The position numbers and the translations under genes were made by a program. From a virus (taxonomy: Duplodnaviria > Caudoviricetes), in the IMG/VR virus record IMGVR_UViG_3300027872_000007, positions 1 to 54,595 of that record: DNA of 54,595 nt, one strand, 5' to 3'. This document shows, piece by piece, positions 27,189 to 48,438 of this stretch. Numbering within the stretch: position 1 is the first letter of the stretch; each line of letters opens with the position of its first letter. A model generated the notes under the pieces. That model did no database searches. It was given only the letters and a program-made list of their open reading frames with translations, and had not been told where the DNA came from.

Positions 27189-28100
27189 CTACGCGCCACC
27201 TGGCGAGCCGTAAGCACCGCGCCAGTCGGACCAGCCGAAGCTGTACCGCTCGCGAGCCTTGTAGCGAAGATTGCCGGTCTCGAAGTCGCCCTCGATACCA
27301 CGCGAGATCTTCTTACGAAGCATGTGCTTGAGCCCATCAGGACAGTCCGTCTTGAGAGTCCACTGGTCGGGATCCGTCAGGCGGTGATTCACGCAGAATC
27401 CGTCGCCCACGGTGCCGAGAGTGTAGATGGCGCTGATGTCGTTATCGCCAGTGTTCGTGCGATACGGTGACATCAAGATCCGCGTTGCCACGAATTGCAA
27501 CTCCGTTGGGAGAATTAGCTTCGTGATCTGCGCTGCGATCGGAATGCCACGGTCGTCATCGAACTCTGAGATGTCGATCGCTGCCTGTTCCAGTGATGCC
27601 TCTGCAAGGTCGGCTGCTGTCGCCAGGGTATTCGCCTGGACACCGCCGCCGAACTGCGGATGGCTTGCTGAGAACAACGGTACACCGTCGCCGCCAAGAA
27701 AGAGGGCGTCGAAGCCGTTGTTGACAATATCAGCACCCTTAACTTCTTTGGTGTGCTGATGTGAACGTGCAAGGGCACGAGCATACTTGTTACCCAATGA
27801 CCCATAGAGTCCGTCTTCCTCGGCTTCCTCAGTGATAGCGAACGCCAGAGCGATCGTCTCATGAGTGTACCGAGCAACGTAACTCTCCGCGCCCTGGTCG
27901 TATGCAACGCCTTCACCTTCGGGCTTGACTGGTGCACCTGCGAACCCGGCGAGCAACACGTCTTCCTCGAATGCTTTCATCGATCGCTCGATGTCGAAGA
28001 TTTCGCGCCACTCCTCTGGATACCGCTTGTACTCCATGCCGAAGACGGCGTTTAAGCCTTCTTGCAGTTGCTTGCGAAAGTCGCTTCGATTCATTGCCAT
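27189..28100 (-). CDS. Major capsid protein (HK97 fold, Mu gpT-like family)
   Basis: MAMNRSDFRKQLQEGLNAVFG, KPEGEGVAYD, ARYTHETIALAFAITEEA.ED, GGDGVPLFSASHP, GDFETGNLRYKARERYSFGWSDWRGAYGS. Confidence 0.92.
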   Translation of the reverse strand: MAMNRSDFRKQLQEGLNAVFGMEYKRYPEEWREIFDIERSMKAFEEDVLLAGFAGAPVKPEGEGVAYDQGAESYVARYTHETIALAFAITEEAEEDGLYGSLGNKYARALARSHQHTKEVKGADIVNNGFDALFLGGDGVPLFSASHPQFGGGVQANTLATAADLAEASLEQAAIDISEFDDDRGIPIAAQITKLILPTELQFVATRILMSPYRTNTGDNDISAIYTLGTVGDGFCVNHRLTDPDQWTLKTDCPDGLKHMLRKKISRGIEGDFETGNLRYKARERYSFGWSDWRGAYGSPGGA

Positions 28101-31668: not shown

Positions 31669-31804
31669 GTTTCTTCCTCGCTTTCCGACGCTTCTCACGA
31701 CGATCCTTCTCCACGGCTTCGATCTCATGCGCCGTTTTGCGGATCTGCTTGCGCACCTTCTCTGCCGGCGATGGCTTCGGTGCGTCAGTCTTTTTGTCAG
31801 CCAT
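31649..31804 (-). CDS. Small basic protein (51 aa, not in ORF track)
   Basis: MADKKTDAPKPSPAEKVRKQIRK...; ATG overlaps the portal stop. Confidence 0.5.
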   Translation of the reverse strand: MADKKTDAPKPSPAEKVRKQIRKTAHEIEAVEKDRREKRRKARKKLGTGES

Positions 31805-34290: not shown

Positions 34291-34350
34291 ACAACCTCCC
34301 ACGACCGACGATCGTCGGTAATGGTCTTCGTGGGCGGCGAAGATATTCGG

Positions 34351-34937: not shown

Positions 34938-35150
34938 CTATGGATTGCAAACGCCGTGCGGTAGTGCACGGCACTCCTCTTTGAACTCGTTGATGATGTC
35001 ATCGCCCTCAGCTTCAGCGATGATGATTGCACCAACGAAGACGCCGGCAACGATCATGGCTGTCTGTTTTTCTCTCTCGGTCCAGTTATCGATCGTCGTG
35101 CATCCAGACAAACCGATCGCCAACACGATCAATAGCAATACGCCTTTCAT
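34938..35150 (-). CDS. Small lipoprotein
   Basis: MKGVLLLIVLAIGLSGC lipobox plus a second hydrophobic segment. Confidence 0.75.
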   Translation of the reverse strand: MKGVLLLIVLAIGLSGCTTIDNWTEREKQTAMIVAGVFVGAIIIAEAEGDDIINEFKEECRALPHGVCNP

Positions 35151-36107: not shown

Positions 36108-36371
36108 TCAGTCTGGGTCGCCGTGGAAGTCTGCGAAGTATCGTTTGTTGAGCCAGCTATTGAACCATCGCTGCATCCACAGGATGTCGCGCTTCTCCAT
36201 GTCCGACCAAGCACAGTCGAGAGTGTAACTGTCGTCTTTCGCATCCCGCTTATTGGTGAGGATAATCACGTCATCAATCTCGCCACGCTCTGCTTGTTGA
36301 AGCGCATGGCGCAGCGTTCGCACGGCGTCATACTCACCGACTGGCAATTCTTTCACGTTGTCATGCGCCAT
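36108..36371 (-). CDS. Hypothetical protein
   Basis: MAHDNVKELP..TLRHALQQAERGEIDDVIIL; overlaps the TerL end. Confidence 0.6.
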   Translation of the reverse strand: MAHDNVKELPVGEYDAVRTLRHALQQAERGEIDDVIILTNKRDAKDDSYTLDCAWSDMEKRDILWMQRWFNSWLNKRYFADFHGDPD

Positions 36372-37953
36372 AGAACTTCCTTGGCTGGCTGAACAGCGCC
36401 AGCTCATCGTCCTTCTCATCGTCAGGTAAGTCGATCAAGCCCATGCGCCGGATATACGCGAGCAGCATCACCACGCAGTCCACCAGGTCGTCATTCTCAC
36501 CGACCGGGAACGTCGCGCACTGATTGATAACTTCGTAGGCCCAGTTCCTGGGGATGTACCACAGCCGGCCATCCTTCAAGATCTGCGCGACCATGTGAGC
36601 CCGGAACACTTTGTCCTTGGACCCAGGCTTCACTCCGCGTATCGAGAGCCCTGCTTTACGCAGCTCCTGAATCAACGAATGACCGCTGGCCTTCTTCTCG
36701 ATCAGCGTCCAGTCAGGATGCCACTCGACATTGTGTCCGATCGCTTCGGTCTTGAGATCTGGGAACTCCACTTTGTCGTTGAACCGCTCCAGCATCAGAG
36801 CATGAACAGCCATGTCCTGTTCTCGACCGCTCTCCGAATACTCGAACAGACCAGCAGTGATCCTCGCGGAGCAGTCGTTCTCCTCGTCGGTCTCGAAAGC
36901 CGTGTCGTACACGGAGATGACCTCAGTGAACTCCGGCATTGGCATTGGCTTGCCGGCGTACTGATGGTCCTGCGGATAGCACCACTGCTTCCACCACTTC
37001 TTCTTCAAGATCAGGCCACCACCGGACGTTGGATCTTGGTTCATCTGGGCAGAGTAGTCCCTGACTGACATGGCCTTGCGCTCAGCCTTGACCTCCTCCT
37101 GGCCAAAGCGTTGCTCGTTCAGCAATTCGCCCTTCTTCTCCCTTGGGTCCTCGAATATCGCACCTTCCTTGGTCTTATGTCCCTTGCCGGCATTGAAGAA
37201 CGTGATGCAGTGCCTGGCTGGATCGTATTCCATCGGCAGCATCAGCACTTCCCATCGCTCGTCCTCGGTCATGAGGATGTGGCCGAACAGGTCAGCATCG
37301 TGCGACCGCTGCCCGATCAGGACCTTCTGCCCAGTCGTCGGATCATTGAGTCGCGATCGCAGTGAGTTGTCCCAGGCTGACAGTGTGCTGTAACGAATCA
37401 GGTCGGAGTACACGTCCGACATATTGTGCGGGTCATCGATGATGATCTTATCGCCGCCTTCGCCAGTGACCTTGCCCAGGATCGAGCCTGAGATGCGATG
37501 ACCACCGTGATTGTTGACGTAGCGATTCTTGCGATTGTCCGATGGATCCAGGTAGAACGTGTCCGCGTACCGTTCTCGAAACCAGGCCGACTCGATCAGC
37601 CGGCGAGACTTGACTGCATCTCGGATGGCCAGCTCCTGAGCGTAAGAGGCGAACAGGAACTGCACTCCTGGATCCAGTAGCCACTCCCACACCGGCCACA
37701 ACACACTCGCGGTCAGACTCTTGGTCTGCCGCGGTGGGATATTGATCATCAAATTGCGAATGTCACCGAACGTGACATAGGCGAGGTGGTCACAGATAGC
37801 GTCCAGGTGCCAGTTGTTCTTGAACTGCTTCGGCTCTACGACCGGCCAGGCAACGGCAACGAACTCTCTCAGATCTCTCCGATAGAACTCGGCTTGGGCT
37901 TGCGTGAGTTGCTTGGATACCGCTTCTTGAACGCTGAGTGCATCCGCGACCAC
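36361..37953 (-). CDS. terL: Terminase large subunit
   Basis: Walker A INIPPRQTKS, Walker B IIIDDP, nuclease residues YDTA, IEKKASG and NDDLVD. Confidence 0.95.
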   Translation of the reverse strand: MVADALSVQEAVSKQLTQAQAEFYRRDLREFVAVAWPVVEPKQFKNNWHLDAICDHLAYVTFGDIRNLMINIPPRQTKSLTASVLWPVWEWLLDPGVQFLFASYAQELAIRDAVKSRRLIESAWFRERYADTFYLDPSDNRKNRYVNNHGGHRISGSILGKVTGEGGDKIIIDDPHNMSDVYSDLIRYSTLSAWDNSLRSRLNDPTTGQKVLIGQRSHDADLFGHILMTEDERWEVLMLPMEYDPARHCITFFNAGKGHKTKEGAIFEDPREKKGELLNEQRFGQEEVKAERKAMSVRDYSAQMNQDPTSGGGLILKKKWWKQWCYPQDHQYAGKPMPMPEFTEVISVYDTAFETDEENDCSARITAGLFEYSESGREQDMAVHALMLERFNDKVEFPDLKTEAIGHNVEWHPDWTLIEKKASGHSLIQELRKAGLSIRGVKPGSKDKVFRAHMVAQILKDGRLWYIPRNWAYEVINQCATFPVGENDDLVDCVVMLLAYIRRMGLIDLPDDEKDDELALFSQPRKFYGA

Positions 37954-37954
37954 C

Positions 37955-38125
37955 TCATTGACACTCCTTGCACTTGGCTCGCTTCACATGGGCCCTGGAC
38001 TCAGTTCGGAGCTGGCTATGCCCACATTCGAGATGCCGGATCCATATATCCGTTTCAGGGATACAGCCTCGTTGAGGTTTGAAGCTAACGTATTCGCATT
38101 TTTCGACCAGCATTAGAGACATCAT
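37955..38125 (-). CDS. Small Zn-binding protein
   Basis: LECGH..CKEC. Confidence 0.5.
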   Translation of the reverse strand: MMSLMLVEKCEYVSFKPQRGCIPETDIWIRHLECGHSQLRTESRAHVKRAKCKECQ

Positions 38126-38487
38126 AAATTCCCCGCTGATAATCCCTTGTAGCGGTGCAATAGAGTGTCCCAGCACCACCGTCTATTCAGGACCACCGCT
38201 ATCGCACCATTGTCCATCGCAGTGAAACGAGCAGTCTCGACGATAGGCTCACCCTGGTCGGTCTCTGTCGTGAAGCGCAGCATGTTGAACTTGCGCGGCC
38301 AGGTGTGGAAGACAATGCCCAGGTGGATCACTGGCTCCTTTGGGTTATCCCGCTGACGCAGGAACACCCAGGTATGCGGACGTAGTACGGGCGCATGCAG
38401 TACCTTGCCAAGCATAAGCGCCCGAATGTAAAGCACCGTCTCCGACAGCTTCGGGCGTTGTTGAGGACTGTTTGATTCGTTGGCCAT
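38122..38487 (-). CDS. Hypothetical protein
   Basis: Translationally coupled at both ends. Confidence 0.55.
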   Translation of the reverse strand: MANESNSPQQRPKLSETVLYIRALMLGKVLHAPVLRPHTWVFLRQRDNPKEPVIHLGIVFHTWPRKFNMLRFTTETDQGEPIVETARFTAMDNGAIAVVLNRRWCWDTLLHRYKGLSAGNL

Positions 38488-38714
38488 CACATATCGTGCT
38501 TGTTGCGGTGGTGGGCTGGCCTGTCCGGGCAACCAGTAACATGCGGGTTGCCGGCCTTCTTGCCGTGCGGGTTACCTTTCTTGTGCGACTTCTTCTCGAT
38601 GCCGGCCTCGCTCATAGCAATCGCTACTGCTTGCTTTTGTGGTCTACCTGAGTGGACCAGCTCGCTGATGTTCCCGCTCACGACCTCTTTGCTGCTGCCT
38701 TGCTTGAGTGGCAT
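38487..38714 (-). CDS. Small basic protein common near terminases
   Basis: [38 protein letters not shown]. Confidence 0.7.
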
Positions 38715-38752
38715 GTCATCCTCCAGGGCGGCCACGGCATTCTAACCTGTTT

Positions 38753-38995
38753 CTAACCTAAAGGTGGCGGTATGATCCGTTCGTACTTCACCAGGGCCTG
38801 AGCGTAATGATCAAAGTCATTCGGCAGGTTGATGTCGTTCGGGCCAATCTCCCGGTGAATGTTGCGCTCGTAAGCAAGACAGATGCCACCCAGCGGCTGC
38901 CAACCTTGCTCCATGTGCAAGACGACCTCATCAACCAAGAAGTCAGAATTACAGGCCACGATCACGGTGTAGTCGATGATCTTCCTCTCGTCCAT
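38753..38995 (-). CDS. DUF1737-like protein
   Basis: Y..I....LVDEV...MEQGWQPLGG..YAQALVK. Confidence 0.7.
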   Translation of the reverse strand: MDERKIIDYTVIVACNSDFLVDEVVLHMEQGWQPLGGICLAYERNIHREIGPNDINLPNDFDHYAQALVKYERIIPPPLG

Positions 38996-39300
38996 CAGCC
39001 CATCGCCCATACATAGATTTTGCTTCGACCAAACTGGTGAAGAAACCATCCATCCAGCCAGATGGGCCATGGCGACTTTCCTGCATCTGGTCCATCGAAG
39101 GCTTTCCATATCCTCCCATAGAGTGCAGGAGGAGTTAAAATGTAGTATTCATCATGCCGCGGTGGGCTCGTTGAAACATGCAAGTCAAAAGTTTTCTCTA
39201 CGTTGAAATACTTTCTCGTGTACTCGGCACAAACTCTCTTACCGTCAGCCGTCCAGTAGTCGCCGTCCCTCAGCTTAAACTCCAATACTTTCTTCGTCAC
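38995..39300 (-). CDS. Hypothetical protein
   Basis: GTG start overlapping the upstream stop. Confidence 0.55.
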   Translation of the reverse strand: MTKKVLEFKLRDGDYWTADGKRVCAEYTRKYFNVEKTFDLHVSTSPPRHDEYYILTPPALYGRIWKAFDGPDAGKSPWPIWLDGWFLHQFGRSKIYVWAMG

Positions 39301-39710
39301 GATTTTCTCCCCTCCCTGTCCTCGTCTGTGTCCAGTAGCTTTAGATAGGCGCGTGAGTAATCGCCTTTCATATGCCCTTCATGGATGGCGCTCGACTCCC
39401 TGCCCTCTTTGGCCTGCAACAGACGAAGCTCAAATATAAAGTCTCGCCATCTTTCGTGTTCTGGTCCCATAATCGGCTTTGATTTTCTGAAATTCTCAGG
39501 GCGCAGGAACTCCAACACCACATAGTCGTCGTTAGCATCGTTCTCTGGATCGAAATCCAGCGTAACTGACATATCGCCTCTTGGAGAAATCCAAACACCA
39601 TCTGAACCAAACAGTCCAGCAGGTACGCCTCGTAGCGTCATAGCATCTGGATCGTCTACAAATTCATAGCCTACCGCTTCAGCTAATCGCCTTATGTCCC
39701 TATCGTTCAT
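39297..39710 (-). CDS. Hypothetical protein
   Basis: Start MNDRDIRRLAEAVG at an ATGA overlap. Confidence 0.55.
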   Translation of the reverse strand: MNDRDIRRLAEAVGYEFVDDPDAMTLRGVPAGLFGSDGVWISPRGDMSVTLDFDPENDANDDYVVLEFLRPENFRKSKPIMGPEHERWRDFIFELRLLQAKEGRESSAIHEGHMKGDYSRAYLKLLDTDEDREGRKS

Positions 39711-39946
39711 AGTGTGGTGTCCTTGACCTCCACTCGAATGGTCTGGCCGTCGATCATCAGCAAGTCCAGCAGGTAATCGATCGAGCAACGGTCTTTGCCA
39801 TTGACGATCTCGTTGATCGTGGACTGCGGCACTCCCCACTGCCTGGCTGCTTCCGATTGGCTGGCATGCAGCTCAATCCGGCCACGTACCGCGGTAAGCA
39901 GGCTCTCTTTCATTTCCTCCGGTGTCGATGCAACGAAGTGAATCAT
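39707..39946 (-). CDS. XRE-family HTH protein
   Basis: SQSEAARQWGVPQSTINEIVNGK..SIDYL. Confidence 0.75.
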   Translation of the reverse strand: MIHFVASTPEEMKESLLTAVRGRIELHASQSEAARQWGVPQSTINEIVNGKDRCSIDYLLDLLMIDGQTIRVEVKDTTL

Positions 39947-40251
39947 TTCTGCTCCTGTTGTCGTGCATCAGTGGATTTTTGTCGTGTTTGCCATTCCAAG
40001 TCGCCAAATAGCTCATCCATTTCGATTTCTCTCACGCCGTCTCGCTCTCCGATTGGCGTGAATCTATAAACCGAATAGTGTGCTGGAACATATCGGCGCG
40101 GATTAAAACCAGACACCCAGCATGTATGCCCAGCGACCTTGAACACAACCAGCCCGGCTTTGTCGCTGATAGCAGCTAGTGTCGTCTTTCCGGTATCGAC
40201 GCCAACCCTTTCAACGCGACCATCTGCATATATTAGGGCTCGAAATCTCAT
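39943..40251 (-). CDS. Hypothetical protein
   Basis: Coupled ORF within the operon. Confidence 0.55.
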   Translation of the reverse strand: MRFRALIYADGRVERVGVDTGKTTLAAISDKAGLVVFKVAGHTCWVSGFNPRRYVPAHYSVYRFTPIGERDGVREIEMDELFGDLEWQTRQKSTDARQQEQK

Positions 40252-40345
40252 GACTGCCCCTACCCGTAGTGGTCAGCGTCCAATAGCAGCATGACTAGCA
40301 TCCCGCACCCAAAACCAAGCATAAATAATTGAAGCCCCATCTCCA

Positions 40346-40525
40346 TCACTGATTTGCTGGATCCGATGCCCAGGCCGGATACTCTGTCTTCACTGGCTGC
40401 TCGATCGCTACGGTGCCATTGCAATACGGATACATCGTGCAGCCCCAGAACTCCTCTCCGGTCGCTTTGTTCTTGCGAACTACCATCTCGTCGCCGCACT
40501 CAGGGCATTCGGGTTCACTGTCCAT
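40346..40525 (-). CDS. Topoisomerase-type C4 zinc-ribbon protein
   Basis: CPECGDEMVVRKNKATGEEFWGCTMYPYC. Confidence 0.8.
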   Translation of the reverse strand: MDSEPECPECGDEMVVRKNKATGEEFWGCTMYPYCNGTVAIEQPVKTEYPAWASDPANQ

Positions 40526-40823
40526 CTTCGATACGATCCAGCCGTTCAATCTCAGCAACGATCAGCGCCCCGGCCTTTACGAGATTTCGTCGATCCGTTG
40601 TCGGCTTCCACCATCCACGCGCCCACGGCCATGACAGTGGAATACCAGTTGCTACATGGTGAATAGATGCCTTCGCAGAACGTAGCGCATAGCACCCACT
40701 AGCCAATGCAAGTTCGCCGCCCTCGTGTTTGTCGTCATGGTTAAGCGTCCAACCTTCCTCCTCGACTTGCCGGTAACGCTCGCGCCCAATCTCATCGAGT
40801 ACCGATTCAGTTTGCTTGTTCAC
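40515..40823 (-). CDS. Conserved phage protein
   Basis: ER.RQ..EEGWT..HDD.H..GELA..WPW..WWKP..RRNLVKAGALIVAEIERLDR. Confidence 0.75.
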   Translation of the reverse strand: MNKQTESVLDEIGRERYRQVEEEGWTLNHDDKHEGGELALASGCYALRSAKASIHHVATGIPLSWPWARGWWKPTTDRRNLVKAGALIVAEIERLDRIEDGQ

Positions 40824-40824
40824 T

Positions 40825-41115
40825 TCAGTCTCCTCCGATAAACATGCCGGCGTTGCAAGCCATCATGCACGAGTGGCAAAGCACGATGTCCTTGGTATCG
40901 ACCTCTTTCGCGATCACCGGATCTGGCCCAAGGATTTGAGCAAGCGGCGCTGCTTCGCCCATGCTCATTTCCAGGCCATGCTGTCTTTGGATTGCTTTAG
41001 CATCGAGGCCCATCGTGTCCATGCGAAACACATAGAAGATCGGAATGTTCTCGTGCGCGACACCCTTATCACAGGCGCTGCACTTCTTCAGATCGCGTTG
41101 CTTCATATCAGGCAT
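40825..41115 (-). CDS. Zn-finger hypothetical protein
   Basis: CSAC..LCHSC. Confidence 0.6.
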   Translation of the reverse strand: MPDMKQRDLKKCSACDKGVAHENIPIFYVFRMDTMGLDAKAIQRQHGLEMSMGEAAPLAQILGPDPVIAKEVDTKDIVLCHSCMMACNAGMFIGGD

Positions 41116-41807
41116 CAGATGTCATCCTGATCGAGCCACCAGGCGATGAAGAACGTCACGGCTTTTTCCATGCGAACTGGATCCAGTATCCGGCCACACA
41201 CGATCGGATCAGACCTATTGAGCCGGCGTCCCATTGCAGTGCCAACCTGGTCGAACAGCTTTCGATCTAGCGCCAGTTGCGTCTCCTTAATGACGTATGG
41301 CTTGATGATGTTGACCGGGAATGTGATCTCCTCGTCAAATGATGTGGGCCAATAAGTGTCCTGTTCCTCTCCATTGCTTTTTATTTTTGTGCCGTAACCA
41401 CCGCTTACTGGAACAGGATCAACATACCTTCCTTTGCCTGCTGGAAGGACCTGGCCGGTTTGTTCAAATGCCTCCCACTTGTAAGTGCTGATCGTTTTTC
41501 TCGGCTTACGTTGGCCGGTGCGTACTGCGAATAAGTCAAGATCGAAGTTTGGCACGATCATGTAACCCAGTTTGATCGCCCTACCAATCTTCAGGTAATA
41601 CTCGATGCGCCGTTCGCATCGACGCACATGCGCCTTGAACGGCTTCGAGTTGAAGTGCCCTCTCCGTGCTTGATTATAGTTTGCGTCGGCCTCACGCTTT
41701 TGCATGAGCAGGCGCCTGATGTTCTCTGCGCACCACGATCTAACTGTCTTCTGTGCAACAGCCAGCTCGCTCGGTGTGTACGCGACTACTTGGGTAGTGG
41801 TCATCAT
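41115..41807 (-). CDS. Hypothetical protein (230 aa)
   Basis: AGGAGG SD, coupled; ends DPIVCGRI..VTFFIAWWLD. Confidence 0.7.
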   Translation of the reverse strand: MMTTTQVVAYTPSELAVAQKTVRSWCAENIRRLLMQKREADANYNQARRGHFNSKPFKAHVRRCERRIEYYLKIGRAIKLGYMIVPNFDLDLFAVRTGQRKPRKTISTYKWEAFEQTGQVLPAGKGRYVDPVPVSGGYGTKIKSNGEEQDTYWPTSFDEEITFPVNIIKPYVIKETQLALDRKLFDQVGTAMGRRLNRSDPIVCGRILDPVRMEKAVTFFIAWWLDQDDI

Positions 41808-42166
41808 GATCCTCCTGTTGGTGCATCTGAAATTGGCAGCCAGTGAGTGGGCTCAGGTAGGTCCTCGGCAAAGACTGAAGTTCTCCACGAGTGTTCGGCA
41901 AGCCAGGCAACACGGAAACAATCAACCAACTCCCTCACTTTCATGTTGCACGTCCAAACGATCGTGCCCTGCTCTGGTAGCTCATCTGCTACCGCGATCC
42001 ACTGACCACGAACGACCCAGGCATTTGCAAATGCCAGATGGAGCCTGTTTTCCAAGAATGGATGCCCTGCACTGTCGGGCTTTGTCAGTGTGTCCACATT
42101 TGCGCAGCCGATTCCCTCCAGCGACTTGATCCATTTGTTCCACGCTTTACTGTACGGTGTCTCCAT
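41804..42166 (-). CDS. DUF551-like protein
   Basis: WIAVADELPE...PTHWLPISDAP. Confidence 0.7.
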   Translation of the reverse strand: METPYSKAWNKWIKSLEGIGCANVDTLTKPDSAGHPFLENRLHLAFANAWVVRGQWIAVADELPEQGTIVWTCNMKVRELVDCFRVAWLAEHSWRTSVFAEDLPEPTHWLPISDAPTGGS

Positions 42167-42308
42167 CGTGCTTCTCCCTTCCTTCCCAGGTGAGCCAGAT
42201 CCAATAAATGCTCCCGCACCTGGGGCAACAATTGTGTTGTCGATATTCTCCTGGCCTATCGTACCATTGATATAGGCATCTCGTACACTGCATGAGGCCC
42301 GGTCTCAT
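42147..42308 (-). CDS. Small zinc-ribbon protein (53 aa, not in ORF track)
   Basis: MRPGLMQCTRCLYQW..CCPRCGSIYW. Confidence 0.5.
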   Translation of the reverse strand: MRPGLMQCTRCLYQWYDRPGEYRQHNCCPRCGSIYWIWLTWEGREKHDGDTVQ

Positions 42309-42373
42309 GAGGCCATGTTACTCCTGGGCGCTACTCCAGGATCTCCACCTCCTCGCGCTTCCATCTGACCTCA

Positions 42374-42574
42374 TCATATGGCTGGACCGATGTGTTCGAG
42401 TTTTTCGACCACTACAGGCGCAGCCCACATTTCATCTTTCTTGAATTGTTGGGTCGCTTTTTCGATGGCCACCACCGCATTTGGAGCAACAACATTGTAC
42501 AGTCGATGGACTCTATTCAACCGCGACACATTGCCGGCCTGAGTCAATGTCATGCTAAATACTCGTTTCATCAT
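42374..42574 (-). CDS. Hypothetical protein
   Basis: ATGA-coupled ORF. Confidence 0.55.
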   Translation of the reverse strand: MMKRVFSMTLTQAGNVSRLNRVHRLYNVVAPNAVVAIEKATQQFKKDEMWAAPVVVEKLEHIGPAI

Positions 42575-42801
42575 GCTTCCTCGATGTAGGTCACACGACG
42601 CAGGCCGATCTTGCGAAGAATCGCGTCACCTGGATTAACTCTGTCACCAACTCGCAACGAGTTCAGGTAGTGCGGATCCAGCCCCAAACGTATTGCCGCT
42701 TGCCGGCAATTGCCAAACTTTTTGACCAGGGCCTTTACCGTTCGGCGTATCAGGGCCTGTTCCACTTTCGTTGGTTGCTTAAAATTACTTGCGTATCTCA
42801 T
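42571..42801 (-). CDS. HTH DNA-binding protein
   Basis: GGGAG SD; NCRQAAIRLGLDPHYLNSLRVG..NPGDAILRKIGL. Confidence 0.7.
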   Translation of the reverse strand: MRYASNFKQPTKVEQALIRRTVKALVKKFGNCRQAAIRLGLDPHYLNSLRVGDRVNPGDAILRKIGLRRVTYIEEA

Positions 42802-42817
42802 GGTCGTTCTCCCTTTC

Positions 42818-43291
42818 TTAAACGCCTGGATTCCAATAAGTGTTGCGATTGTCTCCTGGCAATAGATCATCGACAGTCCATTCACTGTCGTCGAAGGTTT
42901 CGTCCTTGCTCAGTATCAAGCCGAACTCTCGCGCCAAATCCGCGAGCTTTTGCTGACCATAGAACTTTTCGTCATCAGGTCCGATGGTCAATCGTCTGGG
43001 TATGTTACCTACATCCAGGATAGCCTTGGTGGCGTCCTGAAGTGCCGCCTCGCAGATGTCTGCCGGCGTATTCGGCTCGATGATATTGCCGATACCGGGT
43101 TTAGCCGTCTTCATCTCCACACCAAATTCTGCTAGTTGGCCATCGATCTGCTTAGTGAACATATTCATCGCTCCAGCAAAAAACGATTTCCAAGCACAGT
43201 CGTTGATTTTTTCAGCTACACGCTTCAGGCGATTGAATCCGCCAACTACATTTTGTCGGGCAATTAAGACATCGACATCAAGTTTGCTCAC
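42818..43291 (-). CDS. Protein with an MCP-derived C-terminal half
   Basis: Probable GTG start (GTGA overlap). PADICEAALQDA ~ MCP AADLAEASLEQA; FDDSEWTV ~ LTDPDQWTL; YWNPGV ~ YGSPGGA. Confidence 0.6.
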   Translation of the reverse strand: MSKLDVDVLIARQNVVGGFNRLKRVAEKINDCAWKSFFAGAMNMFTKQIDGQLAEFGVEMKTAKPGIGNIIEPNTPADICEAALQDATKAILDVGNIPRRLTIGPDDEKFYGQQKLADLAREFGLILSKDETFDDSEWTVDDLLPGDNRNTYWNPGV

Positions 43292-43386
43292 AGCCTTTTC
43301 CTTGTGATCCACGCCATCACTGCATAGCCAACAATAATTCCCAGCAGCAACGCAATTATGCTCACGCACAAGGTCGGCATGATCAT
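43288..43386 (-). CDS. 32-aa transmembrane peptide (not in ORF track)
   Basis: MIMPTLCVSIIALLLGIIVGYAVMAWITRKRL; coupled at both ends. Confidence 0.55.
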   Translation of the reverse strand: MIMPTLCVSIIALLLGIIVGYAVMAWITRKRL

Positions 43387-43571
43387 GGCATCTTCCGATA
43401 GCAGTATCTGGCAATCTGATTGATGATGTTGTCACGACCGAGAAGTGTTGCTGGCCGATTCTTTGGCTTCGTTAGCTCGTAGATGTCATCGATGATCTTC
43501 CTGGTGGCTTTCAGCTCGACACGAAGCTCACCCTCGGACATCTTGTCCACGTTTTTAGTGAAAGTGATCAC
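43383..43571 (-). CDS. Hypothetical protein
   Basis: AAGGAGG SD and a GTGA overlap. Confidence 0.6.
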   Translation of the reverse strand: MITFTKNVDKMSEGELRVELKATRKIIDDIYELTKPKNRPATLLGRDNIINQIARYCYRKMP

Positions 43572-43846
43572 GGCGCCTCCTTGAGAATATCGAGATCCAT
43601 AACGTGAGTCAGCATCTCAATGTCTTCCTTGCGGCAATAGATGACCTGATTGCCCTTGTCAAGGTACAGCTTGCCCGGATCCAATATGCCAACAGTACGC
43701 CAAGCCCTCAAATGCAGGCGTCTTAGAAAATCGTACCATTTGGGTGTGATTCTTACTTTGGGCTTCACCGGCACCAATCTGTAACCGGCGAACATATTCT
43801 TCGTCATCGTCTCTGTCCCTTTAGCTCCAGTCCTATTCTCAATCAT
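43568..43846 (-). CDS. Hypothetical protein
   Basis: Coupled ORF; start could be 43807. Confidence 0.5.
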   Translation of the reverse strand: MIENRTGAKGTETMTKNMFAGYRLVPVKPKVRITPKWYDFLRRLHLRAWRTVGILDPGKLYLDKGNQVIYCRKEDIEMLTHVMDLDILKEAP

Positions 43847-44153
43847 CGATGTCGATCCACAACTCCTCCATATTGTCTGGCTCCAGCTCCTCGTACACGT
43901 CACCGAAGGCTTTGTTCAGGCCCTCCTTCAACGCCTTTGGGAACTCAGCCCTAAGCCCTGGATCATACGGAATGCTCGCACCCTCCGGCTTGGCCTGTAC
44001 CAGGCTGAAGCCTCCGGTCAGGTCATGGTGCGCGGCATCGTGTAGCAGAGTTGGATGCTTCATGCTTCTCAGCATCACGCCATCGTCGTTTTTCGGAACC
44101 ACCGCCATCGCAGCAGCGCCAATGAAAGCCTGAATGAATCCGCGTCTGTTCAT
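43839..44153 (-). CDS. Twin-arginine-signal protein made of permuted MCP fragments
   Basis: MNRRGFIQ; DGVMLRSMKHP; GGFSLVQAKPEGASIPYD; RAEFPKALKEGLNKAFGDVY. Confidence 0.75.
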   Translation of the reverse strand: MNRRGFIQAFIGAAAMAVVPKNDDGVMLRSMKHPTLLHDAAHHDLTGGFSLVQAKPEGASIPYDPGLRAEFPKALKEGLNKAFGDVYEELEPDNMEELWIDIDD

Positions 44154-44356
44154 GCCGGCGTTCCATACATGGCTCGGTAATCGATCCACTGAACGTCCAG
44201 GCTGGAATCCATGTTGACCTTAAACTTCATCGCAACGATGTTGGGATCAGCCAATGGACTGAGATCCAGCCTTGGCATCGCAGTCGCCATTCGCATGCCG
44301 ATCGCTACCGTTGCTACTGCGCCGACAAACGCCTTGAGAAATGCTCGTCTTTTCAT
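44150..44356 (-). CDS. Twin-arginine-signal peptide ending in an MCP C-terminus mimic
   Basis: MKRRAFLK..MKFKV..WIDYRAMYGTPA. Confidence 0.7.
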   Translation of the reverse strand: MKRRAFLKAFVGAVATVAIGMRMATAMPRLDLSPLADPNIVAMKFKVNMDSSLDVQWIDYRAMYGTPA

Positions 44357-44577
44357 AGACTCAAAAGCCAAAAACCAAATGCAGCAATGGGAGCCATAAT
44401 GAGAAGCGTTCCAACAAACTGGGCGCCCCAATCTGTTTCCATTGGAGGTGAAGCATATCGAGGCTCATGAACAACTGTGTCTCCATACACGCTACGCCAA
44501 TCACTCCAATGACTGACGAAGAAGACGGCGTTTAAGCCTTCTTGCAACTGTTTGCGCGAGAAGTTCTCTTTGCTCAT
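44353..44577 (-). CDS. Membrane-anchored fusion of the MCP N- and C-terminal peptides
   Basis: RKQLQEGLNAVF + WSDWRSVYG + C-terminal TM helix. Confidence 0.8.
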   Translation of the reverse strand: MSKENFSRKQLQEGLNAVFFVSHWSDWRSVYGDTVVHEPRYASPPMETDWGAQFVGTLLIMAPIAAFGFWLLSL

Positions 44578-44738
44578 TGCTTTCTTCTCATATCACCGCG
44601 GCCCAATGCCTCCGAGTTCTTCATCTGGAGTCTGTGGCTTTCCCGTTTCGCTTCATTGAACGTGCCGTGGAATTTCGATTCGCCGGTCTCCAGCTCCTCA
44701 ATGAGACGACCACGGCGCTCCCACTTCTGTTCAAGCAT
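44574..44738 (-). CDS. Small charged protein (54 aa, not in ORF track)
   Basis: MLEQKWERRGRLIEELETG...; AAGGAG upstream and an ATGA overlap downstream. Confidence 0.5.
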   Translation of the reverse strand: MLEQKWERRGRLIEELETGESKFHGTFNEAKRESHRLQMKNSEALGRGDMRRKQ

Positions 44739-45231
44739 GCTGGAACATGGCTCCTTTCGACATATAAATCACTGGCATAGCAATCGTATCGTCCATCTCC
44801 TGCATGCCCATTAAAGCACCATGCTCCATTTTATTGATCGACAAAGCCCCCTGACTAATGCTGATGATCTGCGCTGCTTCCAGCTCATCGAAGAACTCAT
44901 CGTTCATGCCGAACTCCTCGATTACTTGATGAGCGACATATCGAGCCCCACGCTCAACATTTCTGAATGCCTGCGTAGCTTTCCGAAGAAGGTCTTTGGG
45001 ATTGATAGGCGTCCATGGATCTGAGTCGAAAATGGCAGCTCTCTCGAAGATCTGAACGTTCCAGGGCTCAGCAGTATCGATGCCATAGTAGTATTTATCG
45101 GTAGCCATCTCGTAACGCCAGGTGCCATCAGCAAGCACCTCCGGAAACTTTGGAGCCATACGAGAGGCAATAGCAACCGTCGCCACGGCTGCCGCCAATC
45201 CATGAAAGAACGCTCTCCTGGTAAGTCGCAC
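44731..45231 (-). CDS. Twin-arginine-signal protein with MCP-like fragments
   Basis: GTG start with SD; LTRRAFFH; GTWRYEMATDKYYYG; ARYVAHQVIEEFGMNDE. Confidence 0.65.
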   Translation of the reverse strand: MRLTRRAFFHGLAAAVATVAIASRMAPKFPEVLADGTWRYEMATDKYYYGIDTAEPWNVQIFERAAIFDSDPWTPINPKDLLRKATQAFRNVERGARYVAHQVIEEFGMNDEFFDELEAAQIISISQGALSINKMEHGALMGMQEMDDTIAMPVIYMSKGAMFQHA

Positions 45232-45235
45232 TGTC

Positions 45236-45586
45236 CTACTCCTCTTTTTCCTCCACTTTAACGCCCTCGGCTCTTTGGATTGCCTTCTCAACGTCCGCAG
45301 GGCGCTCTTGCAGAATCTGAGCTGGCGTTCCACCTCCGGGCTGCCGAACCGTTTCGTAATCCGGTTTCGGTTTAGGCGCTTCGGTCTTTCGATCGCGACG
45401 ACGCTTGGCGGTTTCTTCCTGGCCGCGCTCTCGGTGTTCCTCGATGAGCTTTTTACGCTCAGCGTCTGATGCTTTGGTTTCCAGTTTTCGCTTGCGCGCC
45501 TTCTCGCGATCAGTATCTGGTGCCGGCGTACTCATTGGTGGGCCGAATGATCGTGGTCGTTCCTCTTTGTTCGCTCTACTGGCCAT
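45236..45586 (-). CDS. Charged low-complexity protein
   Basis: Operon-contiguous ORF. Confidence 0.6.
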   Translation of the reverse strand: MASRANKEERPRSFGPPMSTPAPDTDREKARKRKLETKASDAERKKLIEEHRERGQEETAKRRRDRKTEAPKPKPDYETVRQPGGGTPAQILQERPADVEKAIQRAEGVKVEEKEE

Positions 45587-45588
45587 TG

Positions 45589-45822
45589 CTAAATCCCCGC
45601 TTTTCGTTCCTGCTCGTCAAGATACTTCTGACGTTCAGTTACCGGCTTGGGTGCTTTGGTCTTCCGATCTTCCGGCTTCGTCGCTTCAGGCGCTTCTGGC
45701 TTTTCGTCGCCGTACTGTTCCTTGTACCGCTTGCGCCTGGCCTCACGCTTCTTGGCCACTTTACACGAGATAGAATCCGGATCTTCGCGACAAATCTCTT
45801 TTGCTGATCGGCTGGTCGGCAT
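45589..45822 (-). CDS. Charged small protein
   Basis: Operon-contiguous ORF. Confidence 0.55.
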   Translation of the reverse strand: MPTSRSAKEICREDPDSISCKVAKKREARRKRYKEQYGDEKPEAPEATKPEDRKTKAPKPVTERQKYLDEQERKAGI

Positions 45823-45825
45823 AAC

Positions 45826-46152
45826 TCACCCTTCGGTAGTCGATGGCGGCGACTCATCCTCGTCAGGATGCTCAACAGTGTACGTGAAAGGATCCAGCAT
45901 CGGTATCTTCTCCATGAAAATATCGTCCTCGCTGACATCCTCCCAATCTGCCTCCTGGCTCTCCATGATGATTTGGATCCGATGGTTCGACTGATCCTCA
46001 TCCGATTGCACGACCTTGACAATCTCGATGTCCTGCGGACAGTTGGTTGACACGTAGTCGTTTTCCTTCGCGGTAAGAATCGCTTTCAAAATATCGATAC
46101 TAAGTTCAACTCTAGCCAGCTTCGTCATCTGGATCTCCAGGATCTGGGTCAC
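45826..46152 (-). CDS. Acidic hypothetical protein
   Basis: Operon-contiguous ORF; start uncertain. Confidence 0.55.
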   Translation of the reverse strand: MTQILEIQMTKLARVELSIDILKAILTAKENDYVSTNCPQDIEIVKVVQSDEDQSNHRIQIIMESQEADWEDVSEDDIFMEKIPMLDPFTYTVEHPDEDESPPSTTEG

Positions 46153-46465
46153 GAGACTCTAATGCCATTAGCGTTACATCGGCAAGTTTCCCGAACTCAA
46201 AGTCGTTGCAGCAAATACTGGCCGCAACCATCGACGAGTGCGAACCTGTTGGATGAATCACAACCAAACACATTGCAGACACAGTACCTTTCTCGATTCC
46301 TTTCAGGGCGTTTTGCAGTTGCCGCATAGCATCACGTTTCGCCTGAACAGGAAAGTAGCCATCCACCTTGGGCTCTGGCTTGTTCTTGTCGAGTTCCCTC
46401 TCCATGCGCTTAATTTCCAGGCTCGCTACACCATCTTTATCAGGCAGTATGATTCTACTACGCAC
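46112..46465 (-). CDS. Hypothetical protein
   Basis: LQNALKGIEKGTVSAMCLVV, weakly similar to 36108-36371; start uncertain. Confidence 0.5.
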   Translation of the reverse strand: MRSRIILPDKDGVASLEIKRMERELDKNKPEPKVDGYFPVQAKRDAMRQLQNALKGIEKGTVSAMCLVVIHPTGSHSSMVAASICCNDFEFGKLADVTLMALESRDPDPGDPDDEAG

Positions 46466-46832
46466 TTTCTTTCGACTCCTCGGTTGGCTTATCCAGCCCA
46501 TGGACAATCGACGGTGGCGGCGTCGGCTTCGGAAGGCCAGCACGTTGCGCTGACTTCTCAGCGCGTCCTTGCTTCTCGGCTTCGCGATCCTCGGCAAACT
46601 TCACATCTCTAGTTGTGACCTTTCGCTCGATGGTTTCCGCGTCATAACCAATCGCATCGGCAAATTCTTTCATCGTCGATGCCTCAAATTCTGGTTTCAT
46701 CGCCATAACCTTTTCCATCATGGCGTTTCGCTGCTTACGTTCATCATCGTTGGCCGGCACCCCCCGATAGGTCATGCCGAACACAATGTTCACCGACAGT
46801 TCCACGTCGCCGCAATCGATTTTAAGTGACAT
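46458..46832 (-). CDS. Hypothetical protein
   Basis: GGGAGAG SD before MSLKIDCG. Confidence 0.6.
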   Translation of the reverse strand: MSLKIDCGDVELSVNIVFGMTYRGVPANDDERKQRNAMMEKVMAMKPEFEASTMKEFADAIGYDAETIERKVTTRDVKFAEDREAEKQGRAEKSAQRAGLPKPTPPPSIVHGLDKPTEESKESA

Positions 46833-46876
46833 GATCAGGCTCTCCCAGTAATTTGTAATCGCTGTCCCGAAGCATC

Positions 46877-47134
46877 TTATAATACATCCTTTAAGGCTCG
46901 ACACTTCGCTTCGTGTGCCTGCCGGCATTCGTTCTTGATGTGCTGTTCGCAACCAGGACACATCTCACATTTCTTACACGATCCCTGCTTCGCGAACGGC
47001 GTAGTCAGATAGCAAGTGCAAACATCGGGAAAGTTTTCCTCGACTCGTTTGCGGCGCCACGCTATCCATCGATCATGCGCTTCCTTCGGCGTCGGGCGTC
47101 TTGTGGAAACCGCAGAACCCGCAGAACTTTTCAT
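46877..47134 (-). CDS. Cys-rich hypothetical protein
   Basis: CTC..CKKCEMCPGC..H..C; start uncertain. Confidence 0.45.
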   Translation of the reverse strand: MKSSAGSAVSTRRPTPKEAHDRWIAWRRKRVEENFPDVCTCYLTTPFAKQGSCKKCEMCPGCEQHIKNECRQAHEAKCRALKDVL

Positions 47135-47273
47135 CGATGTCCTTCCTGCTATACGAGCGACGACTACATTTTAGACAAACAATGCATGTGCCATCGTCAC
47201 TGACGAGATAAGTCAGATCCGACTTGTTTGGCCAGCCGACGAGTTTCTTCGCTGACTCTATGAAACGCTGCAT
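47073..47273 (-). CDS. Zn-finger protein
   Basis: IVCLKC..SY..DI..KFCGFCGFH. Confidence 0.55.
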   Translation of the reverse strand: MQRFIESAKKLVGWPNKSDLTYLVSDDGTCIVCLKCSRRSYSRKDIDEKFCGFCGFHKTPDAEGSA

Positions 47274-47592
47274 TACAGTTGCCACGAGCAATAACCTCCG
47301 ATAGACCTCGCGCCAATCCCAACAGCCAGTGATCGGTAACCACCAGCAGAAAGATCTGGGCAAGGATGTTGATGTCCGCGCCGGCTTTCAGCCAATGAGA
47401 CTTCGGCCTAAACTGCGCCAGCGTGAAGTCGTCCATGCGGAATGAATAAAACGAAAGCAGGAACAGCCCGTAGACGATCCAGTGCACCAGATCGTTCTGA
47501 GCCTCAGTGCCGAACGGCGTTCCCGATGTGTAAATGAGCCAGGTAAACCAGGTCGAAAATGCGACCGCCAACCATTGTGACATCTTGCTCAT
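47197..47592 (-). CDS. Multi-pass membrane protein
   Basis: About three hydrophobic segments. Confidence 0.6.
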   Translation of the reverse strand: MSKMSQWLAVAFSTWFTWLIYTSGTPFGTEAQNDLVHWIVYGLFLLSFYSFRMDDFTLAQFRPKSHWLKAGADINILAQIFLLVVTDHWLLGLARGLSEVIARGNCNAAFHRVSEETRRLAKQVGSDLSRQ

Positions 47593-47598
47593 GGCTGC

Positions 47599-47703
47599 CT
47601 ATACGTGTCCGCCCTGAAAGCCGGTAATTGCCGGCAATATAACAAAGAAAACCAGCAACGCCAGAAACACGATGATAGCCACAACAATTTTGAGTGTTTT
47701 CAC
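47599..47703 (-). CDS. 34-aa membrane peptide (not in ORF track)
   Basis: GTG start after the GGAGG SD; MKTLKIVVAIIVFLALLVFFVILPAITGFQGGHV. Confidence 0.6.
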   Translation of the reverse strand: MKTLKIVVAIIVFLALLVFFVILPAITGFQGGHV

Positions 47704-47705
47704 GA

Positions 47706-47752
47706 CTGTACCCTCCTATATAGATACTACGATAACAGAACAGCGATCTCAA
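47706..47752 (-). promoter_or_regulatory. Sigma70-like promoter plus GGGTACAG leader heading the small-ORF operon
   Basis: TTGAGA-17-TAGTAT-10nt-GGGTACAG. Confidence 0.6.
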
Positions 47753-48438
47753 GTGATCTCGTGAGATTCGCCTTCAATTGCCCTGGCCCTGGCTGCCTTC
47801 TTCTGGATCGCCTCCAGCGTCTGTATGACAGCTTCCAGCTCATCCTGTGGCATAGAGCTGAAGTCCAGCGACCGAGCCTGGCTCTGGCGCATGTTCAGAT
47901 CCAGCATCAGCTTCTCGGAGAACATCCCCAGGTGGCGACCCAGATTGACCAAGGCGCTGTGTTTGTCATGCAAAACGTACCTGTAATCCAGCTCCTTGCC
48001 GTCCTCGGTCTCGATCTCCTCGGTCGTCCAGGAGTCCACAGCGAGGGCCTGCGGATTGGTCAGCTCGTTCACTGGCCTGCCGATCAGGCGTATGCCACCG
48101 TTCACCTTCACGACTCGAACATAGTCCTTGACATTCTGAAAGCCGATCGCTGCCATCTCATGCAAGATCCTGGTCGTCGTCACATCGTACTGGGCCGCGG
48201 CCACTTCATTCTTCTTCTCTTGAAGAAACGCCAGGAACGGACGCAGATTGGCCGCCAACTTGTGGGATTTTATCTTCGATGTGGTTTTGGAGTACCCGGC
48301 ATCGATCATTGCTGGATACGGCTTCATTGCGTGTTGGACCACGTTTATCGCGAAGTCCAGTTGCAATTTAGTTCGTGGCCAGCCTCTGGTGTTGCGTGGT
48401 TCTACCTGGATCACTTCTGCTGGGGCGCTCACACACAT
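47749..48438 (-). CDS. terS: Terminase small subunit
   Basis: AMIDAGYS HTH, VTTTRILHEMAAIGF, LHDKHSALVNLGRHLGMF. Confidence 0.85.
   Translation of the reverse strand: MCVSAPAEVIQVEPRNTRGWPRTKLQLDFAINVVQHAMKPYPAMIDAGYSKTTSKIKSHKLAANLRPFLAFLQEKKNEVAAAQYDVTTTRILHEMAAIGFQNVKDYVRVVKVNGGIRLIGRPVNELTNPQALAVDSWTTEEIETEDGKELDYRYVLHDKHSALVNLGRHLGMFSEKLMLDLNMRQSQARSLDFSSMPQDELEAVIQTLEAIQKKAARARAIEGESHEIT

Follow-up and report, generated by a model that had tools for sequence, protein, structure and literature searches.

The window, by which we mean the whole 54.6-kb stretch of DNA analysed here, comes from an uncultured marine podovirus-like phage. Between the genes for the small and large terminase subunits lies a block of about 10 kb of small genes, and to this block belong three genes, here called A, B, and C, which are oriented in the late (structural) direction of transcription. 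Two further small genes, D and E, lie among them, and the gene for the major capsid protein is located elsewhere in the window. The features are as follows.

43839-44153, minus strand: gene A (P0001), 104 aa, N-terminus MNRRGFIQ
44094-44153, minus strand: PF10518 match in the putative Tat-type (twin-arginine) leader of gene A, about residues 1-17
44150-44356, minus strand: gene B (P0002), 68 aa, N-terminus MKRRAFLK
44297-44356, minus strand: PF10518 match in the putative Tat-type leader of gene B, about residues 1-26, of the type found in the C family
44353-44577, minus strand: gene E (P0004), 74 aa, without a Tat leader
44574-44738, minus strand: gene D (P0005), 54 aa, highly charged, without a leader
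44731-45231, minus strand: gene C (P0003), 166 aa, GTG start read as M, followed by RLTRRAFFH
45166-45225, minus strand: PF10518 match in the putative Tat-type leader of gene C, about residues 1-26
27189-28100, minus strand: major capsid protein (P0158), 303 aa, which served as source or model for the copies described below

The reading frames overlap by 8 nt from C to D and by 4 nt each from D to E, from E to B, and from B to A, and a GAGGAG sequence stands 7 nt 5' of the start of gene C. Gene D, which is translationally coupled between C and E, has a 63% identical copy in L007. The dN/dS ratios range from 0.21 to 0.32 across A, B, and C (0.26-0.32 for gene A, 0.29 for gene B, and, in gene C, 0.11 for the leader versus 0.26 for the whole gene). 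On the basis of these ratios, the overlaps of 4-8 nt, and the protein families described below, A, B, and C are real, selected, and translationally coupled genes. No PHROGs family was found for genes A-E at E ≤ 0.001; in 50,697 cultured phage records, the region 43500-46000 has no DNA likeness and a tblastn search with A and C gave no match. In relatives of this phage, the block also encodes other small proteins directed to the envelope, namely FN3-like proteins with Sec-type leaders and small membrane proteins.

The first-pass annotation had pointed to twin-arginine starts on three neighbouring genes, and all of them are indeed present, on the minus strand, and kept in homologues. The N-termini of A, B, and C read Z-R-R-x-F-hydrophobic and continue into an uncharged stretch rich in Ala, Val, and Gly. 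The motif is present more often than chance would give. A six-frame scan of the window with the Pfam TAT_signal model yields exactly three matches at E ≤ 1, and these three are the starts of A, B, and C. Applied to 262 kb from five records of this phage group, the scan finds 11 matches, and applied to 292 kb from five cultured relatives it finds none. Likewise, a strict regular expression matches three times in the window against a mean of 0.39 in 100 first-order Markov simulations, only two of which reach three matches. It should be mentioned that none of the three window copies attains a curated cut-off: the scores are 15.1 and 12.6 bits where PF10518 requires 22.7, and 13.8 bits where TIGR01409 requires 16.7; the PF10518 cut-off is passed by the site of one relative, and the best family members reach E-values of 1.8e-6 and 9.5e-5 on the Tat models of two libraries.

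The uncharged, moderately hydrophobic stretch that follows the motif is also of the Tat type. The median distance from the R-R pair to the next charge is 16 residues in the A family and 17 in the C family, and the stretches in these families contain Ala, Val, and Gly at fractions of about 0.3, 0.15, and 0.1. The 12-residue Kyte-Doolittle maxima lie between 2.05 and 2.20 for the leaders of A, B, and C, and between 2.33 and 3.12 in a small comparison set of three Sec- or lipoprotein-type leaders from the same phages. An A-x-A sequence, which would suit signal peptidase I with its small residues at -3 and -1, is present in 88 of 111 A-family rows and 26 of 30 C-family rows, a pattern that is frequent by chance in Ala-rich stretches.

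Conservation of the motif was followed through two families, all of whose members lie on contigs of at most 84 kb where a length is given. When clustered at 90%, the A family comprises 117 proteins. Of 116 homologues of A, 110 retain the motif, and the six that miss it begin within the hydrophobic stretch. In the alignment of 107 rows, from which ten had been dropped beforehand, including six that start inside the leader, the sole invariant columns are R3, R4, and F6; the families most commonly detected in these proteins at E ≤ 0.1 are TIGR01409 (48/107) and TAT_signal (43/107). For the C family, 34 representatives were found and 27 of these matches keep the motif; among the other seven, three begin inside the stretch, two are C-terminal fragments, one is an unrelated protein of 1312 aa, and one has the motif behind a 40-residue extension. 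The C-family pattern is S/T/N-R-R-x-F-L/F-K/Q/H: all 30 rows have T, N, or S at position -1, 28 have F at +3, and in 24 the first charge past the stretch comes from R or K. The C-family HMM also matches residues 1-36 of B (E 2.2e-13). A homologue of B in two viral contigs keeps both of its parts and adjoins a homologue of A, and gene E has no relatives in viral contigs. In these families the leader is conserved at least as well as the payload, which would fit a leader retained as an anchor, but the 16-17 uncharged residues are short for a membrane span.

TatC recognises a Z-R-R-x-hydrophobic-hydrophobic motif, and Tat leaders fall into cleaved (class I) and uncleaved (class III, the Rieske-type anchors) forms, as set out in the available part of PMC13673990. 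The leaders described here resemble both classes (PF10518, TIGR01409) in the Z-R-R-x-F-hydrophobic motif at the extreme N-terminus, in the mild stretch rich in Ala, Gly, Val, and Thr, in the basic residue past the stretch of B and C, and in being as conserved as the payload. They differ in that the genes are phage-encoded, that the window copies lie under the curated cut-offs, that export is predicted from sequence, and that a very small patchwork of capsid pieces, for the most part unstructured, takes the place of a cofactor enzyme as cargo. Taken together, motif and conservation support the assignment of the leaders of A, B, and C to the Tat type; motif, conservation, and selection on the genes are observed directly, and export and any cleavage of these proteins are inferred. 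The viral record has no tatC, and tatC is present in all three genomes that carry a related capsid gene and were found with the capsid alignment as query.

What, then, do these leaders carry? The first-pass annotation had called the payloads capsid mimics, a description that stands for A and B, and for the neighbouring gene E, all of which resemble the major capsid protein of this phage to a significant degree, and that fails for C. The capsid protein itself belongs to PHROG 371 (E 3.5e-17), matches the Pfam family Mu-like_gpT with 27 bits against a cut-off of 20.1, and is 85-96% identical across four related records. The payload of gene A contains diverged copies of capsid residues of about 136-148, 49-70, and 4-40, together with a His-rich motif that has no capsid counterpart. 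The A-family HMM matches the capsid ORF with E 1.5e-10, and hhalign compares the A family with the capsid at 93% probability (E 2.7e-7). At least one capsid-like segment is present in 114 of the 117 A-family members, and the segments vary in kind and order from member to member. In gene B, the last 12 residues resemble the C-terminal tail of the capsid protein (290-301; E 0.001), and the comparison of B with the capsid gives a z of 3.9, a score that none of 300 shuffles reaches. The N-terminus of gene E copies capsid residues 3-35, and there is also a short copy of residues 290-298 (E 5e-6; in a second comparison, E 1e-7 and 2e-4; z 10.8); its residues 54-72 form a hydrophobic C-terminal segment, which suggests a tail anchor. 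For A, B, E, and an ORF at 46458-46961, the observed capsid score is reached by 0 of 300 shuffles, whereas each of the remaining 21 ORFs tested has its score reached by 12 or more of 300 shuffles. Gene D has no capsid likeness.

The copied stretches are the most conserved ones of the capsid protein, and within them the residues that are invariant in capsid proteins with 61-70% identity to this one are kept. Each of the payloads of A and B is a patchwork of short capsid copies, old and still conserved. The capsid protein that shares these short stretches with A, B, and E is of the Mu gpT type with the HK97 fold (PF10124). The likeness is confined to segments of about 10-50 residues, rearranged in some members, and a complete capsid fold domain is absent (A has 104 aa, B has 68 aa, and both contain short segments only); no Pfam capsid family was detected in A or B. 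A, B, and E cannot form the HK97 fold. Because the capsid profile has no relative of solved structure, labels such as "N-arm" or "E-loop" would follow from the order of elements in the HK97 fold, and residue ranges are given instead. The structure model of gene A is mostly coil (pLDDT 60, pTM 0.22), and co-folding of the capsid protein with A residues 18-104 gave 0.01 and 0.00 against a mark of 0.32, which is uninformative either way. In three distant genomes, the A profile matches capsid genes alone and no mini-proteins. A census of short proteins against capsid residues 1-180 gave 166 matches; the 120 listed share 52-72% identity with the capsid query, look like true capsid genes that have been cut, and include no Tat-like leader, so that the census did not reach the mimic class. 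A likeness of A and B to the portal protein (tblastn E 0.41 and 0.07) was dropped as chance because it had no support from the family HMM.

Gene C is of a different kind. Its payload is an alpha/beta domain that has no detectable relatives outside this phage group and no likeness to the capsid protein (hhalign E 0.24; 123 of 300 shuffles score as high). The fold model (pLDDT 64.6, pTM 0.60) found no Foldseek match at E ≤ 0.001 in the PDB or BFVD and no usable match in the ESM Atlas; a VIA-align comparison with 48,161 chains gave no Z of 5 or more, the best being 4.5. Gene C carries a leader of the kind seen in B on an unrelated domain. Neither C nor a third Tat-tagged gene, present in a complete relative, has likeness to other genes of its own phage, and therefore capsid mimicry is not general among the Tat-tagged set.

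The explanation that we favour, with moderate confidence, is that selected late genes use Tat-type leaders to have their payloads, capsid patchworks in the case of A and B, moved across the inner membrane or anchored at it. The TatBC receptor of the host would most likely read the leaders of A, B, and C, and the small payloads would then cross the inner membrane or stay on its outer face through an uncleaved leader. Both outcomes have precedents in the available text of PMC13673990, according to which Tat tolerates small unfolded cargo without exposed hydrophobic stretches, and uncleaved Tat leaders are able to anchor proteins. The mostly unstructured payloads with capsid motifs could bind the usual partners of those capsid stretches, candidates being an adjacent capsid subunit or a host factor specific for capsid protein in unassembled form, and the bound partner would be kept at the membrane or taken through. 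This further step, in which the payloads bind a partner of the capsid stretches and hold or export it, is our best guess, though less likely than not, and we put it forward tentatively. Gene E, with a capsid motif and a putative tail anchor, fits the same theme of a capsid motif joined to a membrane address.

Some observations count against the favoured explanation: the scores of the window copies lie under the curated cut-offs of both Tat models; the leader of A is short, with 16-17 uncharged residues; and a small unstructured payload would not need Tat rather than Sec. Low scores, short leaders, and a payload that suits Sec would also agree with leaders that are not Tat signals at all but ordinary Sec/YidC signal peptides, or membrane anchors at the N-terminus, with a chance pair of arginines. 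We consider this improbable, in view of R-R-x-F as the only invariant columns in 107 rows, the full Tat pattern of the C-family proteins, of which 24 of 30 rows have a basic residue past the stretch, a hydrophobicity milder than in the Sec-type leaders of the same phages, and Tat families as the top matches in two libraries. We give very little credence to the idea that nothing is exported, the hydrophobic N-terminus being a cytoplasmic interaction helix, perhaps a remnant of capsid residues 126-137, and the proteins being assembly modulators such as dominant-negative or scaffold-like pieces. Residues 1-34 of A do align with capsid residues 128-148 across a 10-residue gap (score 34), an alignment that is not significant by itself, and the genes share their direction of transcription with the structural genes. 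Phage satellites are also known to redirect capsid assembly by capsid- or scaffold-like proteins: SaPI Ccm and CpmB and P4 Sid are accessory proteins of small size that look like the major capsid protein or interact with it. Those redirectors are cytoplasmic, satellite-encoded, and act on the capsid of a helper, whereas the genes described here are the phage's own, carry short copied stretches, and have predicted export or membrane addresses. Moreover, the leaders of B and C have no capsid counterpart, and a complete Tat consensus across more than 130 proteins would be left unexplained.

An alternative that is unlikely in our judgement, yet carries real weight, accepts exported envelope proteins and holds that the capsid likeness only records an origin from duplicated pieces of the capsid gene, with a periplasmic role unrelated to capsids (for example, superinfection exclusion, receptor masking, or lysis timing). 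The other envelope-directed small proteins in the block of relatives would agree with it, as would C and the third Tat-tagged gene without capsid likeness; to our knowledge, capsids never enter the periplasm. It does not easily account for copied stretches that retain exactly the residues invariant among capsid proteins with 61-70% identity to this one, for capsid stretches copied independently in four or more genes of the block (A, B, E, and the ORF at 46458-46961), or for segments that differ in kind and order among members, a variety that looks like selection for capsid likeness itself. Another view, proposed in the first-pass annotation, is that capsid-like baits bind a cytoplasmic capsid sensor of the host or rival subunits and either leave with them by Tat co-export or jam the translocon. 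Bacterial defence systems are known that respond to capsid proteins, gene E bears the same capsid motif on a putative tail anchor, and baiting would explain a strict R-R-x-F on a payload without its own need for Tat. Unlike Sec, Tat moves folded complexes, and partners without a signal are co-exported (PMC13673990, available part), as with the small-subunit leaders of hydrogenase and arsenite oxidase that carry a bound partner. As far as is known, a capsid-like bait would have no other way to clear a bound protein from the cytoplasm. In contrast to those enzymes, a partner of the phage proteins is hypothetical. Late-direction genes transcribed with the structural genes would be late for counter-defence, a protein that imitates a trigger should itself activate the sensor, and gene C lacks capsid likeness; we accordingly hold the baiting of sensors or rival subunits to be a long shot. 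The specific form in which A, B, and E are "addressed capsid mimics", that is, short copies of the capsid protein's best-conserved stretches, which would tolerate no mutation, placed on a Tat leader (A and B) or a tail anchor (E), which evict or pin a cytoplasmic protein that recognises capsids, such as a host defence sensor, has in our opinion a small chance of being right. If it were true, it would be counter-defence by removal, through Tat co-export or pinning at the membrane, rather than by inhibition.

Phage-encoded Tat substrates are hardly discussed in the literature. In the available text of a 2026 review of Tat transport, phages are mentioned only in other contexts, and our literature search found no paper on Tat-tagged or export-tagged capsid-fragment genes of phages. 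Across a whole family of 117 proteins, a strictly conserved Tat motif is joined to copies of the most conserved stretches of the capsid, and these genes show how a structural gene can supply fragments for new small genes of a phage. If the leaders work, parts of the phage's shell protein would be delivered to the envelope of its host or would serve to pull something else to it, and this would open a testable question about capsid sensing, the control of assembly, or a new use of the transport of complexes by Tat.

Three small neighbouring genes on the minus strand of this phage genome, here designated A, B, and C, begin with Tat-type motifs, each followed by an Ala/Val/Gly-rich hydrophobic stretch, in agreement with the first-pass annotation, which had described all three starts and an Ala/Val-rich h-region behind each. 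With two further small genes, D and E, they form a gene chain with overlaps of 8 nt (C to D) and 4 nt each (D to E, E to B, and B to A), and GAGGAG lies 7 nt upstream of the C start. The chain sits in an approximately 10-kb block of small, mostly unannotatable ORFs between the small and large terminase genes (36361-48438). The window is a linear IMG/VR virus record taken in full (54,595 bases; CheckV completeness 78). Between 48.4 kb and base 3, nearly all of its genes are carried by the minus strand, and those with names, including an SU10-type adaptor and tail fibre genes, were assigned with PHROGs and Pfam.

Genes of the window referred to in the text
47749-48438: small terminase (PHROGs/Pfam)
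44731-45231, minus strand: C, 166 aa, GTG start
44574-44738, minus strand: D, small gene between C and B
44353-44577, minus strand: E, small gene between C and B
44150-44356, minus strand: B, 68 aa
43839-44153, minus strand: A, 104 aa
36361-37953: large terminase (PHROGs/Pfam)
31804-34302: portal (PHROGs/Pfam)
27189-28100, minus strand: major capsid protein, Mu gpT type (PHROGs/Pfam)

By terminase and portal, the closest cultured phages are the Roseobacter phages CRP-901/902 (approximately 41-43% identity), followed by Pelagibacter HTVC023P-type and Caulobacter phages; the host is therefore probably marine and Gram-negative, perhaps an alphaproteobacterium. The best DNA match lies in a data set labelled seawater metagenome, which may itself be the source. 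The small and large terminase genes are adjacent in CRP-902, and the approximately 10-kb small-gene block is therefore absent there. Elsewhere in the window, a giant ORF (3-6674, minus strand; at least 2224 aa) extends past the low end, and a small ORF (34938-35150, minus strand) carries a very hydrophobic leader that ends in a lipobox-like L-S-G-C; it lies between the portal and large terminase genes, where it may belong to a lysis cassette and encode a lipoprotein or spanin.

The sole Pfam match of A and of B is TAT_signal (E-values 0.022 and 0.14), and the sole NCBIfam match of C is TIGR01409 (0.056); the three leaders share the sequence features of Tat signals but score under the curated cut-offs. 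When all six frames were scanned with TAT_signal (E-value ≤1), exactly three sites were found in the window, namely the starts of A, B, and C, and two in each of four related records, which with the window makes 11 sites in 262 kb, whereas no site occurred in five cultured relatives scanned as complete genomes (292 kb). A strict pattern, which demands a start codon with R-R no more than eight residues on, a hydrophobic pair after one intervening residue, and 14 residues without D, E, or R, selected the same three starts and nothing else in the window; among 100 simulated windows its mean was 0.39, and three occurrences were reached in two. The stretches are less hydrophobic (2.05-2.20) than three Sec- or lipoprotein-type leaders of the same phages (2.33-3.12), in a small comparison.

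Relatives of A occur at nine viral loci, and a profile of these nine retrieved 117 proteins among 5.8 billion clusters (the A family), whose names, two stray ones excepted, are lacking or “hypothetical”, and whose contigs are at most 84 kb wherever a length is given. R-R lies near the N-terminus in 110 of the 116 members other than A itself; the remaining six start within the hydrophobic stretch, as expected of mis-called or cut starts. These six were omitted from the family alignment, together with a near-duplicate, a 55-residue fragment, a row with a long extension, and a 221-residue form, and in the resulting 107 rows (of 117 proteins) only R3, R4, and F6 are invariant. TAT_signal is the most frequent Pfam family among the members (43/107 at E-value ≤0.1, best 1.8e-6) and TIGR01409 the most frequent NCBIfam family (48/107); two further Tat-leader families match six members each. 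Relatives of C are few: five by word search, and 34 representatives at E-value ≤0.001 among 1.84 billion. The motif is present in 27 of these 34; of the other seven, three start within the stretch, two are C-terminal fragments, one is an unrelated protein of 1312 residues, and one carries the motif after an extension of 40 residues. Across 30 C-family rows, R-R is always preceded by T, N, or S; F stands at +3 in 28, followed by L, F, or I in all and then by K, Q, or H in 24, and in 24 the first charge past the stretch is R or K. The C-family leader has the classical S/T-R-R-x-F-L-K pattern, and its stretch is followed by a basic residue. A homologue of B (53% identical), retaining both leader and C-terminal motif, is found in two viral contigs, followed by a homologue of A. 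Pairwise dN/dS values, some with saturated dS, are 0.26-0.32 for A, 0.29 for B, and 0.21-0.26 for C, with 0.11 for the C leader. The leaders are at least as conserved as the payloads, the remainder of each protein; such strong conservation is unusual for a cleaved signal and is a hint that the leader is retained or has a role beyond that of an address.

The likeness of the payloads to the phage's own capsid protein was first detected when the five proteins were searched against the window itself: residues 45-95 and 68-99 of A (E-values 5e-4 and 0.003, whole window) and 1-31 of protein E (5e-6, whole window) match the capsid gene. In an hhalign comparison of the A and capsid alignments, the C-terminal part of A corresponds to capsid residues 3-40 (93% probability, E-value 2.7e-7); by BLASTP, protein E matches capsid 3-35 (1e-7) and 290-298 (2e-4); and the last 12 residues of B match capsid 290-301 (0.001). 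The first 36 residues of B belong to the C family (HMM E-value 2.2e-13), so that B combines a leader of the C type with a capsid-tail motif. When 25 ORFs of the block were compared with the capsid protein over 300 shuffles, the real score was never reached by shuffles of A, B, E, or the ORF at 46458-46961, and it was reached in at least 12/300 for each of the other 21, C and D included. The earlier proposal of capsid mimicry is supported for A and B, as well as for E, and is not supported for C, which has no likeness to the capsid protein (E-value 0.24), and whose alpha/beta model, of moderate confidence, found no match in PDB, BFVD, or Atlas.

An HMM of the 117 A-family proteins matches the capsid ORF (E-value 1.5e-10) via two to three stretches, and at least one capsid-like segment occurs in 114/117 members (pairwise E-value ≤0.01). 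These segments span capsid 1-180, most often 49-70, in an order that varies among members; K, E, G, and D, which are nearly invariant in the family, align with the invariant capsid residues K59, E61, G62, and D68, and no part of these capsid proteins is more conserved than the copied stretches. In three distant genomes (capsid proteins 61-70% identical to that of this phage), the A profile matches the capsid genes and nothing besides. In four related records, the capsid protein is 85-96% identical to that of the window; because the mini-proteins are far more diverged, the copies are old. That the payloads are themselves capsid proteins is ruled out because they share stretches but lack the capsid fold; A predicted alone is mostly coil with a single helix at 66-89 (pLDDT 60, pTM 0.22).

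Several other segments should be mentioned. A His/Asp-rich motif of the L-H-D-x-x-x-H-D type (A 36-47, approximately 44013-44048), kept in many A-family members, has no capsid counterpart; as a candidate metal site it would give a reason for Tat export. The first 34 residues of A (44051-44153) align with capsid 128-148 across a 10-residue gap (score 34, not significant alone), and the leader itself may have grown out of a capsid segment. Residues 57-132 of the ORF at 46458-46961 (minus strand) resemble capsid 16-97 (z 6.4); it is without a Tat-like leader and has a counterpart in a related record (L001:765-1127). The ORF at 40518-40862 (minus strand) matches the A-family HMM weakly (E-value 0.018), in the part resembling the capsid N-terminal stretch, and when aligned directly with the capsid protein it showed no convincing likeness.

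One complete relative, of 72.8 kb, also carries exactly three Tat-like starts, all within 2 kb. They belong to a C homologue, to an A-like gene (capsid likeness, E-value 1e-4), and to a gene whose beta-rich payload is unlike anything else in that genome. In a related record (G004, L015; 7271-7507), a Tat-model match (E-value 1.5e-4) runs directly into a match to capsid 75-131 (6e-6) in one 104-aa open frame, by its sequence a further Tat-plus-capsid chimera with a different capsid segment. Related blocks also hold FN3-like proteins with Sec-type leaders and more Tat-tagged small genes with unrelated payloads (L002:1420-2010, L007:1428-1982, L007:4825-5166, and L001 at approximately 4840-5200).

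The analysis shows that the Tat-type motif is complete and strictly conserved on genes under selection, and that the payloads of A and B consist of capsid pieces; we regard the observation as confirmed and not as chance. A literature search of titles and abstracts found no publication on phage Tat cargo made of capsid pieces. According to PMC13673990, TatC recognises the motif of such leaders, small unfolded cargo is tolerated by Tat if it lacks exposed hydrophobic stretches, Tat leaders that stay uncleaved can act as anchors, and signal-less partners can be co-exported. The A, B, and C proteins would be brought to TatBC and then across the membrane or anchored in it, and we consider it probable that this targeting is real. 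A capsid motif combined with a membrane address is the theme common to A, B, and E, and on this basis we tentatively propose that these proteins might keep a partner that binds those capsid stretches at the membrane or past it. The main alternative is that this likeness is no more than a birthmark, in proteins whose present task in the envelope is an unrelated one. The first-pass version, in which capsid-like baits evict a sensor, seems improbable; of the first-pass interpretation, the Tat-type leaders and the capsid likeness of A and B are supported, and that of C is not. The block as a whole looks like a variable set of envelope-directed proteins.
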